A stretch of 29,413 nt of DNA, taken from the NCBI GenBank assembly GCA_035387745.1, contig DAOOON010000001.1:1-29413 (forward strand), given 5' to 3'. The notes beneath the pieces were generated by a model. The model saw only the letters and a list, made by a program, of their open reading frames with translations, was not told the origin of the DNA and searched no databases. Numbering within the stretch: position 1 is the stretch's first letter; every line of letters begins with the position of its first letter. Source of the stretch: an archaeon (GTDB lineage: Archaea; Iainarchaeota; Iainarchaeia; Iainarchaeales; CSSED10-239). The position numbers were made by a program, and so were the translations under genes. Below are positions 434 through 16,346 of this stretch, one piece after another.

Positions 434-553
434 ATGAATTTTAAAAAGAAAGCAATAGAACCAATAGTTGCAACAATTCTTTTGGTTGTAGTTGCAGTTA
501 TTTTAGTCACCATTGTTCTTGCATGGGGTAAGAATTTCACAACTGGTGGTTTA
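434..553 (+). repeat. Conserved 5' pilin module, copy 1 (pairs with 907-1026)
   Basis: These 120 nt encode 40 aa identical to copy 2. The two copies differ at 14 positions, all synonymous third-codon sites. Confidence 0.9.
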
Positions 554-892
554 AATGAAGCAGGCGCTATAACAAGCGATGCTTGTAAAGGCGCAACATT
601 GTCTTTAGAAAGTTGTGATTGGAATTCTGATACAAACAAAGTCGTATTCACATTAAAGAACACAAGCGACACATACACCTTTGATGTTAATGGTTTTTAC
701 ATTAATGTAGCAGACAGTTCAACGGTTACAGAATCAGATTTAGATAATGTTTCTTCAACTACAGCTTTAGGCCCTGGTGCAAGTTTAGTTGAAGATATTA
801 CAGTATCAGACATAGTAGCAACAAAAGTAAAATTAAACGTGCGTTCAATTACTTGTCCAACCACAGCAGTAAGCGAACTGGAATGTAGTTAA
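434..892 (+). CDS. Archaeal type IV pilin (Pilin_N/DUF1628-type N-terminus), four-Cys scaffold paralogue
   Basis: The N-terminus MNFKKKA|IEPIVATILLVVVAVILVTIVLAW has a basic stretch, a small residue and a roughly 22-aa hydrophobic helix, which is a class III signal peptide. It also has a C-x9-C pair, a KNTS sequon, a C-terminal VRSITCPTTAVSELEC and several N-x-S/T sequons. Confidence 0.8.
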   Translation: MNFKKKAIEPIVATILLVVVAVILVTIVLAWGKNFTTGGLNEAGAITSDACKGATLSLESCDWNSDTNKVVFTLKNTSDTYTFDVNGFYINVADSSTVTESDLDNVSSTTALGPGASLVEDITVSDIVATKVKLNVRSITCPTTAVSELECS

Positions 893-906
893 AAGAGGTA
901 AAAAAC

Positions 907-1026
907 ATGAATTTTAAGAAGAAAGCAATAGAACCAATAGTTGCAACAATTCTTTTAGTTGTAGTTGCTGTAATATTGGTAACGATAGTTCTTGCATGGG
1001 GTAAAAATTTTACAACCGGCGGATTA
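907..1026 (+). repeat. Conserved 5' pilin module, copy 2
   Basis: See 434-553. Codon-by-codon comparison gives 0 non-synonymous and 14 synonymous differences. Confidence 0.9.
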
Positions 1027-1377
1027 GATGAAGCAAATAACTTAACAAACGATAGTTGTGCTGGTGCAACCATTTCACTACAAAGTTGTGATTGGAATAG
1101 TACTTCAGAAGTTGCAACACTTTTGATAAAAAACACAAGCAGTACCTATACCATAGCTGCAGATGATTTATCCTGTAATGTTACAGACGATTCAAATGCA
1201 TTAAATAATCATCAAACTATACCGACTGCAACAACAGCAGCAATACTTCCTGGAGCATCAATATCAACAACTTGTACAGCATCTTCATTAGCAGCAGCTG
1301 CAACAAAAGTTACGGTGAATGTTAGGTCAGAGACCTGTCCAACAACAGCAGTAAGCGAAATAAAAGGTTGTTCATAG
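907..1377 (+). CDS. Archaeal type IV pilin paralogue (four-Cys scaffold plus two extra Cys)
   Basis: The first 40 aa are identical to ORF 434. It has the same C-x9-C pair, KNTSS sequon and VRSETCPTTAVSEIKGC ending. The central part is a divergent Ala/Thr-rich core. Confidence 0.8.
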   Translation: MNFKKKAIEPIVATILLVVVAVILVTIVLAWGKNFTTGGLDEANNLTNDSCAGATISLQSCDWNSTSEVATLLIKNTSSTYTIAADDLSCNVTDDSNALNNHQTIPTATTAAILPGASISTTCTASSLAAAATKVTVNVRSETCPTTAVSEIKGCS

Positions 1378-1399: not shown

Positions 1400-1849
1400 A
1401 TGATTTCCAAAAAGGGGGTGTCACCAGTAATTGCAACTATACTTTTAGTTGTTATAGCTTTAATACTGGTGGGCATTCTTCTTTCTTGGGGTCAAAATTT
1501 TGTAAATAAAAATACTTCTGATGCAGATAGCGCAATTGATAGAAAATGTATTGGTGCAGGAATCACCATTAATAATTGTGACTATAATAGCCTTTCTGAG
1601 ACTCTTACTTTTATTATTGTTAATTCAGGAAAGGTTAATTTCTCTGCAGATCAAAACCTTAGTCTTATTCTAATTGATGCAGATACTAATCTTGTCAATG
1701 AGCATCAAGATATAATTGATGGGAATGCCTTTAATAGAGGCGATTCTTTTAGAATAGAAATTGACGAGTATGTAGCAACAACACCAATAGATGTGGAAGT
1801 AAGAAGTACACAGTGTGTTAATTATTTTGCAAGAGTTTCTTGTAATTAA
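1400..1849 (+). CDS. Archaeal type IV pilin paralogue (more divergent)
   Basis: The N-terminus MISKKG|VSPVIATILLVVIALILVGILLSW is the classic archaeal Pilin_N motif. The cysteine scaffold is retained (KCIGAGITINNC ... VRSTQCVNYFARVSC). Confidence 0.8.
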   Translation: MISKKGVSPVIATILLVVIALILVGILLSWGQNFVNKNTSDADSAIDRKCIGAGITINNCDYNSLSETLTFIIVNSGKVNFSADQNLSLILIDADTNLVNEHQDIIDGNAFNRGDSFRIEIDEYVATTPIDVEVRSTQCVNYFARVSCN

Positions 1850-2353
1850 TTAGATTTTTTCTATTTTTATAAACTGTATTCTTTCTTCTTTATCAACAAT
1901 AGCCATAACAAACTTAGCACGTATGGTTGTTGCAAGTCTTTCTGATTTTATGATTTCTCTAGTTGCAATCTTTGTGCTTTTAAAAACATCCACAACCATT
2001 TCTGTGTGCGTGTGCTCTCCAGCCTTTGATTTTTGATAAACTCTAAAATCAAATCCAAAGATGTTTCCGTCTTTTACCACACACCCTTTGTTTGTTAATT
2101 CCTTAAATACAAGATATTTTTCAGAGAAGTCAGATATTTCTTTATTACAGGTCTTTTCTAGTTCTTTTGTGCTTATTGTCTTGTTGTTTTTATCAACAAT
2201 TATAATTTTCTTCTTTTCTAGAAAATAAAAACATTCAAAAAGATCTAAGTACATCTCAAGGCCTTTTCTAAATCCAAAGCCTTTCTGAGTAATTTGGCTT
2301 TTTAGGTTATTATCTTTTATAAGGCCGCTATTTTTTTCAAGCATTACTTTCAT
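1850..2353 (-). CDS. endA: tRNA-splicing (tRNA-intron) endonuclease
   Basis: YLVFKELTNKGCVVKDGNIFGFDFRVYQKS...HTEMVVDV...RAKFVMAIVD matches the EndA catalytic domain pattern (YLVYKDLR.RGY.VK.G.K.G.DFR.Y...HS.YLV...K..L.AIVD). Its 167 aa fit the single-unit archaeal type. Confidence 0.8.
   Translation of the reverse strand: MKVMLEKNSGLIKDNNLKSQITQKGFGFRKGLEMYLDLFECFYFLEKKKIIIVDKNNKTISTKELEKTCNKEISDFSEKYLVFKELTNKGCVVKDGNIFGFDFRVYQKSKAGEHTHTEMVVDVFKSTKIATREIIKSERLATTIRAKFVMAIVDKEERIQFIKIEKI
1855..1868 (+). terminator. Oligo-T tracts that could terminate the pilin array transcript
   Basis: A T6 run (1855-1860) and a T5 run (1864-1868) lie just 3' of the pilin stop at 1847-1849, inside the 3' end of the convergent endA gene. 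Oligo-T is the usual archaeal termination signal. Confidence 0.25.
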
Positions 2354-2368: not shown

Positions 2369-2656
2369 TTATTTATAAAGCGTAAATAAATTTCTATCAA
2401 CTCCATAGAATAAACCAATCCTAACACCAGCATCAATCCAGCCATAAGCATAGGAATAAGACGCTAAGGCCCTTGTAAAGTCGCCTTTTTCTTCTAAGAC
2501 TTTCCCATCCAAAAGATAGTTATTTGCCATCTCTAGGTAGTTGTCTGCCATGTCTTTAAGGAAAGAATCATTTTCTATATTTATTTTAATTGTGGTTAAT
2601 GCTTTTTCTAGTAGTCCTCTATACTTAATGCAATATTTTTTAACGTCTGTATTCAT
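2369..2656 (-). CDS. Small helical protein, DUF357-like
   Basis: This 95-aa protein contains GDFTRALASYSYAYGWIDAGVRIGL. From memory this resembles the archaeal DUF357 signature (..ALA..SYA.GWLDAG..LGL), which needs an HMM check. It overlaps the dphB stop by 17 nt. Confidence 0.5.
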   Translation of the reverse strand: MNTDVKKYCIKYRGLLEKALTTIKINIENDSFLKDMADNYLEMANNYLLDGKVLEEKGDFTRALASYSYAYGWIDAGVRIGLFYGVDRNLFTLYK

Positions 2657-3377
2657 TTATTCCATCTCTTTCAATATCATTTAATGCTCCACAGATTATT
2701 AAGCTTTGTGGAAGGCTTTTGCTTTCGACTTTTTTATAGTCTAAAAAATCAAAAGTTATAATCTCTTGGTCTTTACCAGAAATGCCACAAAGCCCAACAC
2801 ATACTGCGTTTTTTAGTTTCTCGCCTTTTTCTTTGTCAATTTCTTCAAGTATCTGGCACCCCTCAAATAGCGTCATAAATTTTTGCTTGTCTGTCTTAAT
2901 ATCAAGAAGACAAAGTGTATGCGTATTATTCTTTAGGTTTTCAATAATACAATCATAGAAGCTTGTTGGCTTGTAGTTACCCTCAGGATAAACAATGCTT
3001 GTGGTTTTTCCAAACTTATACTCAAATAATCCAGAAGCACCCCTATAATTAAATATAGAAATTCCAGCAATAATCTGTGTTTTAATTTTTCGCTTGTTTG
3101 CTTCTTCAATTAATGTAAAATGAGTGGTTGCTGAAAAGGGATTACCAATAACTAGAAGGCAAGATTCGTCTTTGAGATATTTCTTTTCTTGTTCAAGTTC
3201 TGTTCTGTTTAATGGTATTATTTTTTTTTCTAATATTTTTTCGAGTTCTGTTAAGTCTCCTTGTGAGAAAATATTAGTGTAATTATCAATATAGACTTCT
3301 GTGCATTTTTTTATGCACTCAATTGCTTCAAGAGTAAGCTGTTTAGGATTTAACCCCACTCCAATTATGTAAAACAT
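2640..3377 (-). CDS. dphB: Diphthine synthase
   Basis: It begins MFYIIGVGL and contains GNPFSATTH, YKFGKTTSIVYPEGNYKPTSFYDCIIEN and HTLCLLDIK. These closely match archaeal DphB/Dph5 motifs. Confidence 0.9.
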   Translation of the reverse strand: MFYIIGVGLNPKQLTLEAIECIKKCTEVYIDNYTNIFSQGDLTELEKILEKKIIPLNRTELEQEKKYLKDESCLLVIGNPFSATTHFTLIEEANKRKIKTQIIAGISIFNYRGASGLFEYKFGKTTSIVYPEGNYKPTSFYDCIIENLKNNTHTLCLLDIKTDKQKFMTLFEGCQILEEIDKEKGEKLKNAVCVGLCGISGKDQEIITFDFLDYKKVESKSLPQSLIICGALNDIERDGINEYRR

Positions 3378-3378
3378 T

Positions 3379-3774
3379 TTAACTATAAACTCCTACTTCT
3401 ATATATATCTTATTATTAGAATTATTAATATACTTTATGGAATTAGATAGAATCTTTGTTTTTTCTGTTTTAAAAGAATTTATTTCTTTCCGGTTATTAT
3501 TTATTATAATATACCCAGAAGTTATTGGAAAAAGCAAAAGATAGTTATTCTCTAAAGCTTCAAGATTATCAATCTTAAGATATTGTGAAGTAATTAAAAG
3601 GTCATTTATTTTTTGCATCTTTAATAATTCAATATTGTTTTCTGTAAGGCTGCTTGAGTTAAGTGTTTGTGCCATTACTATTAAAAGTGAGGCAAAGATT
3701 AGTGCAAAAATTCCGTCAATAACAAATATTTGTCCATTATTTGCATTTTGTAAATTCCAGAACTTTAAAGCCAT
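3379..3774 (-). CDS. Pilin-like protein with class III signal peptide (minor pilin candidate D)
   Basis: The N-terminus is ...NANNG|QIFVIDGIFALIFASLLIVMA. The C-terminus IYIEVGVYS resembles that of ORF 4328-4837 (TIEVIVYT). It overlaps the upstream gene by 38 nt and ends 1 nt before dphB. Confidence 0.55.
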   Translation of the reverse strand: MALKFWNLQNANNGQIFVIDGIFALIFASLLIVMAQTLNSSSLTENNIELLKMQKINDLLITSQYLKIDNLEALENNYLLLFPITSGYIIINNNRKEINSFKTEKTKILSNSIKYINNSNNKIYIEVGVYS

Positions 3775-4168
3775 TATTAAATATCACCCCTCTTTGTATA
3801 GTCATTTCAATCTCTGTTATTTCGTTTTGATAAATAGTTATTTGACCTGCTCTAATTCTGCAGATCTTTTCTTTTTTCAGTTCTTCTTCAAACATCAGAA
3901 ATTTCAAGTCCAAGATATTCTGATAGCACAGGCTTTCATGATTGATTTCTGTAAAAGCCAGATAATTACACTCACTAACAAGCTTATCAATAAATAAAAT
4001 GGATTTTAAGTCATCAATTTCTTTCTGATTATTTATTTGTTCTTTGGCATAATTCTCAAAAAATAAAATTTCGAAATATAAAACAAAGATAAGACACAAA
4101 GAAAAAAACAAAACATCAAGTACTATTGCTTGTCCCTTGTGATTCATATTTCTCCCAGTTTTTTTCAT
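3737..4168 (-). CDS. Pilin-like protein with class III signal peptide (minor pilin candidate C)
   Basis: The N-terminus is MKKTGRNMNHKG|QAIVLDVLFFSLCLIFVLYF. The start could instead be the second ATG at 4147. It lies on the same strand and overlaps both neighbours. Confidence 0.55.
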   Translation of the reverse strand: MKKTGRNMNHKGQAIVLDVLFFSLCLIFVLYFEILFFENYAKEQINNQKEIDDLKSILFIDKLVSECNYLAFTEINHESLCYQNILDLKFLMFEEELKKEKICRIRAGQITIYQNEITEIEMTIQRGVIFNNGFKVLEFTKCK

Positions 4169-4331
4169 TATAATAATTGGTTTTTATAATTTTTATAATT
4201 TCTTTTAGATTCCTGTTTTTTTCTAGTCTTTCTTTAAACTCAAGATTGATATTAATAAAAAATCCAAGTACAATAATAATTATTAAAACACACAAGATAA
4301 GTTCTAAAGTGATTATCCCTTTTCTATTCAA
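4116..4331 (-). CDS. Short pilin-like protein (candidate B), E at +5
   Basis: The N-terminus MNRKG|IITLELILCVLIIIIVLGFF has G at -1 and Glu at +5, followed by a roughly 20-aa hydrophobic helix. This is the canonical type IV pilin signature. It is 71 aa and has a 4-nt overlap with the upstream gene. Confidence 0.6.
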   Translation of the reverse strand: MNRKGIITLELILCVLIIIIVLGFFININLEFKERLEKNRNLKEIIKIIKTNYYNEKNWEKYESQGTSNST

Positions 4332-4837
4332 GTATAAACAATCACCTCGATTGTGTAATTTTTAGGGAAAGTAAAAGTTGTTTTAGAATACGAGGTCTTC
4401 TGTTCAAAGCCAAGATATTTATTTTTAGCTATGCCGTTAGTTATTGTATATCTTTTTATATAAACATTTGGCATTGGTCTTAAGACTATGGTTTTTGTTA
4501 TTTCTTGTAGTTCTAAAAGATTTATTTTTTGTTTTTTATTTGTGTTTATATTTAGAATAAACCATTCTTCTGTTTGGGCGTCTTGGTTTGACAGATAGTT
4601 TATTACTTTAGCATTAATTTGTGCATTAAGCGTTAACTGGTCGTTATTTGGCATAGAAAGTTCTTTTTTAACCATTTCTTCAAAATTAATAGTTGCGCTA
4701 TGCTTTTTTGTGCTTTGGGATTTAACTACTACAAACTCTAAGTTATTTTCAATTCTGCCATTACCAGCTATAGACAAGAAAACAAGCAAAAACAACAGCA
4801 CCCCTAGACTTAAAAAGCCTTTATTTTTTGTGTTCAT
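4328..4837 (-). CDS. Pilin-like protein with class III signal peptide (candidate A)
   Basis: The N-terminus is MNTKNKG|FLSLGVLLFLLVFLSIAG. The remainder looks beta-rich and ends NYTIEVIVYT. It is the first gene of the minus-strand operon running 4837 to 1850. Confidence 0.55.
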   Translation of the reverse strand: MNTKNKGFLSLGVLLFLLVFLSIAGNGRIENNLEFVVVKSQSTKKHSATINFEEMVKKELSMPNNDQLTLNAQINAKVINYLSNQDAQTEEWFILNINTNKKQKINLLELQEITKTIVLRPMPNVYIKRYTITNGIAKNKYLGFEQKTSYSKTTFTFPKNYTIEVIVYT

Positions 4838-5000
4838 TAAATATTTAATGATTTTTTTCCTTTATTTAACCAGTTGCTTGTTTTTTTTGTGTTTTTGAAG
4901 ATTTTGTTTTATCTATTAAAGCTTTTACAAAAAATCTAACAAATGTTTTTAAATAGCTCTATCTACAATAAATATATTAATATCAAAAATCGGAATTGCT

Positions 5001-15253: not shown

Positions 15254-15787
15254 TTAGATTACTAAGAGATATAGCCAAAATCCCACAAGTATTAGCCTTA
15301 TTGCTATGACTTTATCAAATATCTTGAATAATGCTAAGATTATGATTAATAAAAGAAAGAAAGGCGAAAAAACAATCTTTAATAGCAACCACCAGATACT
15401 CTGCTTCTTTGTATATGTCCTTTTGATAGCATCAAAAGAATTGTCTGTGTCCTGGTCGCTTGGCACACAGAAGAAAAGAGCCCCAATTCCAATCCAGATA
15501 AGCAAAAAGATATAGAATGGCTCGCTTGTAACTTTTATGATGCTTGCGCAAATTAATGAAATAAAGATATTAAAGAAAAACGGAAATAAAGAAATAATAA
15601 TTATCTTATAGTCCTTGGAGTCTTCATGCACAACATAGCCGCCAGATTTATCAATAAACTTAATTTTTTTTATCTTTACACCAAACATTAAGCAAGCAAG
15701 AGCATGTGCGCATTCGTGCAGAACAATTCCAGGAAAGAAAAGTAGATGCATTATTTCATTAAGTTCCATAAATAATAAGTATTTCAA
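15254..15787 (-). CDS. Polytopic membrane protein with HExxH motif, M50B/site-2-protease-like metallopeptidase candidate
   Basis: HECAH (nt 15704-15718) lies inside the first hydrophobic segment. GIVLHECAHALACLMFGVKIKKIKFIDKSGGYV resembles the Peptidase_M50B-like pattern HE.GHAL.A...G.......... G, recalled from memory. Four or more TM helices follow. The track start is TTG at 15787, and the first ATG is at 15769. Confidence 0.5.
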   Translation of the reverse strand: MKYLLFMELNEIMHLLFFPGIVLHECAHALACLMFGVKIKKIKFIDKSGGYVVHEDSKDYKIIIISLFPFFFNIFISLICASIIKVTSEPFYIFLLIWIGIGALFFCVPSDQDTDNSFDAIKRTYTKKQSIWWLLLKIVFSPFFLLLIIILALFKIFDKVIAIRLILVGFWLYLLVI

Positions 15788-16164
15788 TCAATATTTAAAA
15801 TATTGTTCTGTTTTGTTAATGTTATTTTTTGCGTTTCTGTGATTTCTGTTATTGTGCAGTTAATAGAAAGTGTAGTTCTAATCTCGCAGGTCTTCTGGTT
15901 GTTTTTCAAAGTTATCTTGTTATTGCTTTTCTCTATTTGCCAAGCACTAAGTGCGCCAGGCTCAATCTCAATCTTTCCTTCGGGCATGATTTCAAATAAC
16001 TCGATTTCTGCCTTTAGATCTTTACAGAAGCCTTTTAGTCTATAGTTGTCATTAGCCGTTATATTTCTATTATAAAGATTAATGATTCCAATAATGCTTG
16101 CGCCAAGAACAGAGATAATTCCTGCAATCAACAAAACATATTCTAAAGTAACAAACCCTTTCAT
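15784..16164 (-). CDS. Pilin-like protein with class III signal peptide, E at +5
   Basis: The N-terminus MKG|FVTLEYVLLIAGIISVLGASIIG is close to the classic GFTLIE-type prepilin signature. It is 126 aa and starts 2 nt after the small pilin gene ends. Confidence 0.65.
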   Translation of the reverse strand: MKGFVTLEYVLLIAGIISVLGASIIGIINLYNRNITANDNYRLKGFCKDLKAEIELFEIMPEGKIEIEPGALSAWQIEKSNNKITLKNNQKTCEIRTTLSINCTITEITETQKITLTKQNNILNID

Positions 16165-16166
16165 AT

Positions 16167-16346
16167 TTATTCAATATCTGATATCTTGTCAAATATCTTA
16201 TCTGAAGTTTTTTCAACAGTAGTGTTTGCTTTTGTTGTGGTTTTTTGTAATTGCGTGATAATGACAAGAACTATAGCAACAATTGCTGCTAAAAGTATTA
16301 TCATTTCTGCAGAGATTTGTCCTTTACAATCTTTTATTAGATTCAT
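16167..16346 (-). CDS. Short (59 aa) Epd-like type IV pilin; not in the supplied ORF track
   Basis: Hand translation of the minus strand gives MNLIKDCKG|QISAEMIILLAAIVAIVLVIITQLQKTTTKANTTVEKTSDKIFDKISDIE, with ATG at 16346 and TAA at 16167-16169. The KGQ + E(+5) + hydrophobic helix pattern is the class III signal peptide consensus of short methanogen-type pilins. Confidence 0.7.
   Translation of the reverse strand: MNLIKDCKGQISAEMIILLAAIVAIVLVIITQLQKTTTKANTTVEKTSDKIFDKISDIE

Follow-up and report, generated by a model that had tools for sequence, protein, structure and literature searches.

The Epd pilus of Methanococcus maripaludis is built from the minor pilins EpdA-D, the mini major pilin EpdE/MMP1685, the platform proteins EpdJ/EpdK and the peptidase EppA. 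The processing sites of EpdB-E read KG/QV, KG/QV, KG/QL and KG/QI (PMC4371748; a slash marks the cleavage site here and below), and the substrates of EppA share a signature in which a leader of 5-13 residues ending in Gly is followed by Gln at +1 and Glu at +5 (PMC4371748, PMC3875500). EpdA-C measure 130-156 amino acids (aa; PMC3875500). Archaeal type IV filaments of this 'system 1' (Epd) are marked by two platform paralogues, a major pilin that lacks a globular domain and a number of additional class-III proteins (bioRxiv 10.64898/2026.04.22.720090; PMC4858521). System 1 has been reported in methanogens, Thermococcales and DPANN archaea, and in a second type, '4A', two platform genes likewise occur in some DPANN (bioRxiv 10.64898/2026.04.22.720090); Makarova et al. 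predicted that each such locus would encode five or more minor pilins (PMC4858521). Here we analyse four overlapping open reading frames (ORF1-4) on the minus strand of a 29,413-nucleotide (nt) stretch, hereafter the window, of contig DAOOON010000001.1 (assembly GCA_035387745.1), from an archaeon of the order Iainarchaeales. We propose that they probably encode minor pilins of an Epd/Tad-like filament and that the bulk of this filament would be a 59-aa mini-pilin encoded elsewhere in the window.

Among bacterial systems, Tad/Flp pili combine the Flp mini-pilin with the pseudopilins TadE, TadF and TadG and the platform pair TadB/TadC. The locus described here resembles them in three respects: its mini-pilin has about 50 mature residues, it encodes several larger accessory proteins that are pilin-like, and its two platform genes are of the single-domain kind. 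Moreover, the family of a 126-aa protein encoded beside the mini-pilin carries Glu at +5 and Tyr at +6, like the Flp motif. The locus differs from Tad/Flp systems in belonging to an archaeon and in lacking linked genes for a TadV-type peptidase, a CpaC secretin or TadZ, and the TadF/TadE matches obtained are weak, sub-threshold and confined to the N-terminal helix. Four consecutive overlapping genes for small pilin-like proteins also recall the bacterial GspH-I-J-K, FimU-PilV-W-X and ComGD-GG quartets, and the long helix and small sheet predicted for ORF4 resemble those of small minor pilins. However, no sequence or Foldseek similarity to these quartets was found, and the order and sizes of the genes differ; the comparison is one of analogy only.

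Four overlapping genes and their N-termini

The array and the two pilin-like genes that we group with it are as follows.

4328..4837, minus strand: ORF1, 169 aa; the largest member, a candidate minor pilin
4116..4331, minus strand: ORF2, 71 aa, TTG start; a short polar tail follows the helix
3737..4147, minus strand: ORF3, 136 aa (3737..4168 and 143 aa with an alternative upstream start)
3379..3774, minus strand: ORF4, 131 aa
16167..16346, minus strand: mini-pilin, 59 aa, KG/QISAEMIILLAAIVAIVLVII, no globular domain; PF04021 match with E=4.3e-6 and 26.9 bits against a cut-off of 23.7
15784..16164, minus strand: pilin-like protein, 126 aa, MKG/FVTLEY, Glu at +5 and Tyr at +6

In the ORF list, ORF1/2, ORF2/3 and ORF3/4 overlap by 4, 53 (or 32) and 38 nt. 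The ORF4 stop codon occupies 3379-3381, leaving 1 nt before the dphB ATG at 3377. An earlier note, made from the letters of the window alone, had described four minus-strand ORFs of these sizes with these overlaps and the 1-nt gap, and had quoted their N-termini; in all of this it agrees exactly with the sequence. Because homologues of ORF3 measure 134-137 aa, its true start is most likely MNHKGQ, which gives the 136-aa protein and the 32-nt overlap.

Identical copies of the array genes are present on at least 21 contigs from independent assemblies; clustered at 90% identity, the homologues of ORF1, ORF3 and ORF4 fall into 16-20 groups. Five array loci were recovered in a scan of GTDB species genomes and 32 in a scan of Joint Genome Institute (JGI) metagenomes; since the former come from five species only, the clade is narrow. 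The order ORF1-4 is constant in about 30 distinct loci, that is, in every locus long enough to judge, down to homologues of 29% (ORF1), 26% (ORF3) and 41% (ORF4) identity. ORF2 was missed by BLAST in the more distant loci, but of 11 gaps between ORF1 and ORF3 that were examined, 8 hold an ORF of 63-87 aa. Pairwise ratios of nonsynonymous to synonymous substitution (dN/dS) against five relatives are 0.11-0.19 for ORF1, 0.18-0.37 for ORF2, 0.19-0.39 for ORF3 and 0.19-0.26 for ORF4. Given the recurrence of the order in about 30 loci and dN/dS values of 0.11-0.39, the four ORFs are real conserved genes under purifying selection. The earlier note had named absence from every relative as one sign that would count against its proposal; all four are kept in these loci. 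The window itself is AT-rich, with about 31% G+C. Matching proteins of metagenome-assembled genomes bear the NCBI names 'archaeon' or 'Candidatus Diapherotrites archaeon', so that its source is an archaeon of the DPANN type.

In each family the most conserved feature across these loci is the motif preceding the hydrophobic helix. The window's ORF1-3 have a class-III layout, in which a short leader ending in [KR][GA] is followed by about 20 hydrophobic residues, and so does ORF4 in most relatives. ORF1 begins MNTKNKG/FLSLGVLLF (family motif [KR][GA]/[FM].S). ORF2 reads KG/IITLE in the lineage of the window, with Glu at +5 (lineage motif KG/I[IM][ST][LV]E), and its orthologues in the wider clade carry [KN][GA]/Q[ILV]SIEF, the textbook class-III QxSxE motif. 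ORF3 begins MNHKG/QAIVLD, with Gln at +1 and Asp at +6 (family motif K[GA]/Q....D). The window copy of ORF4 reads NNG/QIFVID, its relatives have KG/Q or KG/I, and the family motif is [KRN][GA]/[QIFL]....[DE]. The prepilin-type N-termini claimed by the earlier note are therefore conserved class-III motifs in all four families.

The window was also scanned with a crude rule. All six-frame ORFs of at least 40 aa were searched for [KR][GA] within the first 25 residues, followed by 20 residues that average at least 1.8 in hydropathy and are uncharged beyond position 6. Seven ORFs alone matched, none of them a false positive: three PilA-like pilins (434-1849), ORF1-3 and the 59-aa ORF at 16167-16346. 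ORF4 fails solely through the Asn at -2 of this lineage.

Set against Epd, the likenesses are several. The leaders are 5-14 residues long and end in Gly/Ala. The Gln at +1 seen in the Epd sites recurs in ORF3, ORF4, the mini-pilin and most ORF2 orthologues. The Glu at +5 that completes the Epd signature is restricted to ORF2, the mini-pilin and the 126-aa protein, and ORF1 has neither Gln at +1 nor an acidic residue. The minor-pilin sizes are 131-169 aa here against 130-156 aa for EpdA-C, and the major-pilin candidate, like its Epd counterpart, is very short (59 and 74 aa, respectively) and has no globular domain. Moreover, both systems have two platform paralogues and pilin genes scattered away from the ATPase. 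Unlike in Epd, genes for PilA/UpsA-type pilins come after the platform genes of this locus, so that the machine could equally be of the '4A' type.

An AlphaFold2 model of ORF4, built on a 39-sequence alignment that includes distant homologues, reached a mean predicted local distance difference test score (pLDDT) of 86.5. It predicts a continuous 54-residue helix (13-66) running from the predicted cleavage site, about 52 residues of which would fall in the mature protein. This is followed by a short helix (71-81) and by strands 87-91, 94-98, 108-116 and 122-130, which form a four-stranded sheet. The predicted architecture is, in general terms, that of a small type IV pilin. Profile alignment (hhalign, on alignments from all loci) of ORF3 with ORF4 gave a probability of 84% and E=7.6e-6 over 99 columns; by this comparison the two are remote paralogues, and through this kinship ORF3 may be expected to share the fold predicted for ORF4. 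ORF2 and the family of the 126-aa protein align over the N-terminal 24 residues (E=1.5e-5), and ORF1 aligns with the other members at the N-terminus only. The earlier note had pointed to a C-terminal strand shared by ORF1 and ORF4. The letters are indeed there, but the profile comparison finds no homology at that end, and kinship through it was rejected. Four Cys are kept in the mature part of ORF3 in most lineages, and an N-x-S sequon of ORF4 (N117-S119) is conserved with a variable middle residue, both of which fit an extracytoplasmic location.

Linked pilin genes in distant and close relatives

Among 1.84 billion representative proteins, a hidden Markov model (HMM) of ORF4 matched 20 clusters only, all of 116-131 aa; the weakest matches keep KG/F....[ED]. 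Distant four-gene arrays encode proteins of 180, 124, 161 and 118 aa at locus L049 and of >159, 124, 151 and 120 aa at locus L048. The first gene of the L049 array matches the ORF1 HMM (hmmsearch E=2e-6) and the last matches ORF4. In these two arrays (within L048 478-1663 and L049 8648-10357) the second gene thus has 124 aa, against about 70-85 aa in the other arrays, with a class-III-like start, QKG/LAVIE, in L048. From this size difference, ORF2 in the clade of the window appears to be a truncated form of the 124-aa gene.

At L048, L049 and a third distant locus, L050, there is no dphB downstream of the array. Instead, it lies tail-to-tail with a 135-143-aa pilin-like gene, whose motif is R[GA]/Q..IEY, and a 55-56-aa class-III mini-pilin, for which PF04021 gives a weak match below the cut-off. 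The HMM of the window's 126-aa protein finds these 135-143-aa homologues with E about 1e-10. In intermediate lineages the pair of mini-pilin and 126-aa protein lies about 3.5 kb upstream of ORF1, and the mature N-terminus of the window's mini-pilin is almost invariant across the clade. Because the distant arrays adjoin homologues of the 15784-16346 pair, gene order indicates that the ancestral unit is a six-gene pilin module, which has been split by housekeeping genes in the lineage of the window. The 59-aa mini-pilin, of one Epd/Flp-like class with ORF1-4, is the candidate for the major subunit.

Next to this pair, a gene at 15254-15787 (minus strand) encodes a 177-aa HExxH membrane zincin (DUF3267/M50B-like) and shares 4 nt with the gene of the 126-aa pilin. 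The 126-aa pilin and zincin pair is kept throughout the clade of the window, and the trio that the two form with the mini-pilin (15254-16346) is conserved. An M50 peptidase beside the array at L049 was considered as a counterpart of the zincin and rejected, since the DUF3267 HMM does not match it and it adjoins NFACT, like the housekeeping M50 of locus L009.

The left part of the window holds further pilin genes and the genes that separate them from the array.

434-892, 907-1377 and 1400-1849, plus strand: three PilA/UpsA-like type IV pilin genes; TIGR02537 matches with E=2e-8 and 3.5e-4
1850-2353, minus strand: endA; Pfam match, housekeeping, outside the pilin module
2369-2656, minus strand: DUF357; Pfam match, housekeeping, outside the pilin module
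2640-3377, minus strand: dphB; Pfam match, housekeeping, outside the pilin module

An ORF at 21-371 sits where the C-terminal part of a fourth pilin is expected. Longer contigs with identical genes show what lies beyond the left edge of the window: a fifth pilin and two T2SSF platform genes, the additional pilins being of 160 and 156 aa and the platform proteins of 270 and 295 aa. The five PilA/UpsA-like pilins, with the two T2SSF genes before them, thus form a pilus locus that is cut by the window edge and is convergent with endA. In all loci of the clade the order is Cdc6 (leftward), then ORF1-4, dphB, DUF357 and endA (rightward), then the pilins, T2SSF-a, T2SSF-b and a DRG GTPase (leftward). 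The array is therefore linked both to other pilin genes and to platform genes. Other housekeeping genes of the window are Cdc6/Orc1, PCNA, primase, aRF1 and Pelota; an extension of the window to the right holds housekeeping genes only, and no prepilin peptidase.

Two of the tandem pilin genes (434-1377, plus strand) are identical over their first 40 residues (MNFKKKAIEPIVATILLVVVAVILVTIVLAWGKNFTTGGL) and diverge in their C-terminal domains. The number of pilin paralogues varies between 4 and 5 among relatives. This pattern suggests recent duplication or gene conversion with diversification of the head domain.

In one relative, L008, the gene of a T2SSE ATPase is found 2 kb upstream of ORF1. 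In place of the Cdc6-PCNA block, this contig (L008 1-6400, with the same ORF1 protein as L007) carries the ATPase gene together with an M48 peptidase gene and one that is LigT-like. The arrangement is either a strain rearrangement that brought a pilus ATPase beside the array or an assembly chimera.

The proposed filament and competing explanations

Because the class-III motifs are conserved, the ORF4 model is pilin-like and the array is linked to pilin and platform genes, we favour the view that ORF1-4 are minor pilins of an Epd/Tad-like filament, with the 59-aa mini-pilin probably its bulk subunit, and put its probability at roughly two in three. We infer from the same observations that the proteins are cleaved and taken up into a filament, and likewise which filament this would be and what each member would do in it. 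Each protein would be inserted into the membrane by its N-terminal hydrophobic helix, and a prepilin peptidase would cut off the leader of 5-14 residues after the conserved Gly/Ala. A machine of platform and ATPase would then extract the proteins into the filament; two T2SSF paralogues adjoin the locus, and the ATPase would be encoded elsewhere. As minor subunits of low abundance, ORF1-4 would prime, cap or decorate a thin pilus that most likely consists in bulk of the mini-pilin encoded at 16167-16346. The platform pair could belong to the '4A' type instead. GspK, the tip pseudopilin of type II secretion, has no conserved acidic residue; as ORF1 has none either, it may be the tip-most subunit or cap, a suggestion that we make with low confidence.

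The earlier note had likewise proposed a minor-pilin set. The motifs, the ORF4 model and the linkage to pilin and platform genes speak for that part of it; the homology of ORF1 to ORF4 and the tie to dphB do not hold, and no peptidase was found. It had also named the absence of an assembly ATPase, platform or prepilin peptidase from the whole genome as a refuting sign. Two T2SSF genes are adjacent and a T2SSE gene is present in L008, but the peptidase motif is absent from the loci examined.

A number of observations weigh against the minor-pilin interpretation. Several concern the signals themselves. ORF1 has an acidic residue at +5 or +6 in no lineage; the acidic residue of ORF3 and ORF4 (Asp or Glu in ORF4) stands at +6 and not at the canonical +5, a real departure from Epd; and ORF4 of the window has Asn at -2, where most relatives have Lys/Arg. 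Others concern the search for known relatives. In Pfam and NCBIfam no family matches ORF1-4 at its cut-off, which sets them apart from Epd, and PF04021 (Class_IIIsignal) and TIGR02537 do not match the window copies. Pfam likewise gave nothing for ten ORF4 homologues from the HMM search, the most distant included. Below their cut-offs, ORF2 orthologues match PF04021 (E about 1e-3, 19 bits against 23.7) and TadF (E=2e-3), and ORF2 of the window matches ComGE (E=3e-4, 20.7 bits against 49); the TadF scores are 14.5-18.6 bits against 27.3. All these matches are confined to the hydrophobic N-terminus. A Foldseek search of the ORF4 model against the PDB found no pilin, the best hits being ribosomal proteins at E=0.12, and when profiles of ORF1, ORF3 and ORF4 were run against PDB sequences, no meaningful match emerged. 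The ORF1 model, from 16 close homologues, had a pLDDT of 51; it was unusable and was excluded from the fold search. Lastly, the machinery is incomplete near the array. The motif of A24 prepilin peptidases, G.GD[VIALMF][KR], occurs in no ORF of the loci examined, where, unlike in Epd, no EppA-like peptidase was seen; for that reason leader processing is a step that we infer. Within about 50 kb of the locus in the window's genome no assembly ATPase was found. Moreover, the whole region is collinear in the clade, and adjacency to the platform genes is therefore moderate evidence only, and weak when taken alone.

The best supported alternative is that ORF1-4 are uncleaved, bitopic signal-anchor proteins, which would form a membrane-embedded accessory complex of a pilus machine (compare ArlF/ArlG and PilN/PilO) or an unrelated envelope complex. 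The absence of a prepilin peptidase from these loci would fit such proteins, as would the signal of ORF1, the +6 acid of ORF3 and ORF4, the missing basic residue at -2 in the window copy of ORF4 and the lack of a significant fold or sequence match to a solved pilin. However, a plain anchor would have no need of the [KR][GA] that precedes the helix in four families and more than 30 lineages, together with an Epd-type Gln at +1. The single 54-residue helix of the ORF4 model runs from the hydrophobic segment into the globular domain in a pilin-like manner, and the array travels with bona fide class-III pilins. On balance we consider uncleaved anchors unlikely.

Less likely again, in our judgement, is a short pseudopilus built from all six proteins (ORF1-4, the 126-aa protein, the mini-pilin) and serving secretion or the uptake of DNA or another substrate, as in ComGC-GG and the type II secretion system. 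A pseudopilus without an adhesive role is a variant of the minor-pilin interpretation and not its opposite. The set of four overlapping minor genes and one small major subunit resembles the comG and gsp operons, and the five PilA-like pilins beside the platform genes could form a separate, adhesive pilus. The weak N-terminal NCBIfam matches, to ComGE as given above and to ComGF (E=0.022), point the same way, but they fall far under the cut-off and cover the hydrophobic helix only. Furthermore, no genes for DNA translocation and no secretin-like genes are linked to the array, and Epd, the nearest characterised archaeal analogue by signal type, is an adhesive pilus.

A longer shot still is that the six proteins form a module specific to a few DPANN archaea, with a signal of its own (the acid at +6) and perhaps processed by an enzyme outside the A24 family, for example the zincin at 15254-15787, and that they make a filament for attaching to or tapping a host.

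The dphB junction, putative promoters and the DPANN context

The following putative elements surround the array.

3400..3408, minus strand: putative internal TATA box for dphB-DUF357-endA, ATATATATA, in ORF4 codons 123-125; -31 to -23 from the dphB ATG
3424-3432, minus strand: companion block TATATTAAT; -55 to -47 from the dphB ATG
3390-3393, minus strand: companion block GGAG; -16 to -13 from the dphB ATG
4861..4869, minus strand: putative promoter of the four-gene unit, TTAAATAAA, TATA-box-like; -32 to -24 from the ORF1 ATG

ORF4 and dphB are conserved neighbours only in the clade of the window, and not in L048-L050. Over the last 19 codons of ORF4 the mean pairwise codon difference is 0.22, against 0.50 at the other conserved ORF4 codons (30 distinct loci, Mann-Whitney p=0.001), and no comparable drop in synonymous variation is seen at the C-termini of ORF1 and ORF3. 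Three blocks of this segment are invariant: the two companion blocks listed above and ATATATAT[AT], at -31 to -23 relative to the dphB start codon. An archaeal TATA box for a transcript with a short leader or none has this spacing, and codon choice at these TATA-like positions does not vary across the 30 loci. Moreover, distant ORF4 homologues without dphB downstream have no invariant KIYIEIGVY end. Judging from this codon-level constraint, a promoter and/or ribosome-binding site of dphB-DUF357-endA is probably embedded in the 3′ end of ORF4 (3379-3440).

Since the junction is lineage-specific and dphB is likely to have an internal promoter, co-transcription of the array with dphB is possible but not implied. 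This departs from the earlier note, which had taken the arrangement to imply co-transcription of surface-filament genes with translation and tRNA-processing genes. On synteny, which it had proposed to check, the order of the array is kept in about 30 loci and the link to dphB is absent in L048-L050. We read the tight junction as a product of clade-specific genome compaction, not as a functional coupling. That ORF1-4 are membrane proteins functionally tied to dphB-DUF357-endA in translation and tRNA processing, as the 1-nt gap and the same junction throughout the clade might suggest, is very improbable, given that distant arrays continue into pilin genes and not into dphB, that the nucleotide-level constraint lies at TATA-like blocks inside ORF4, and that the dphB, DUF357 and endA products are cytoplasmic enzymes.

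Upstream of the array, an alignment of six closer lineages shows GGTTAAATAAA conserved at about -34 to -24 from the ORF1 ATG, and this block may be the promoter of the pilin unit. Between ORF1 and the divergent cdc6/orc1 gene (4838-5000), the blocks GTAGATAGAGCTATTTAAAAACATTTGTTAGATTTTTTGTAAAA and CAAAAACACAAAAAAAA are conserved in the closer lineages. By their position they could be promoters or origin-recognition elements beside cdc6.

DPANN archaea have ultra-small cells that are thought to depend on hosts, and their means of attachment are largely unknown. According to a groundwater study of 2020, DPANN genomes lack components of type IV pili, whereas a census of 2026 found system 1 and 4A machineries in some DPANN (bioRxiv 10.64898/2026.04.22.720090). 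The locus described here illustrates how pilins escape notice, with six class-III proteins that belong to families without annotation. ORF1-4 represent previously unannotated families but an expected kind of pilus component; because minor-pilin sets are expected in archaeal pilus loci (PMC4858521), the advance is incremental. Together with their partners, ORF1-4 are concrete candidates for a host-contact filament, and for its tip, in DPANN archaea.

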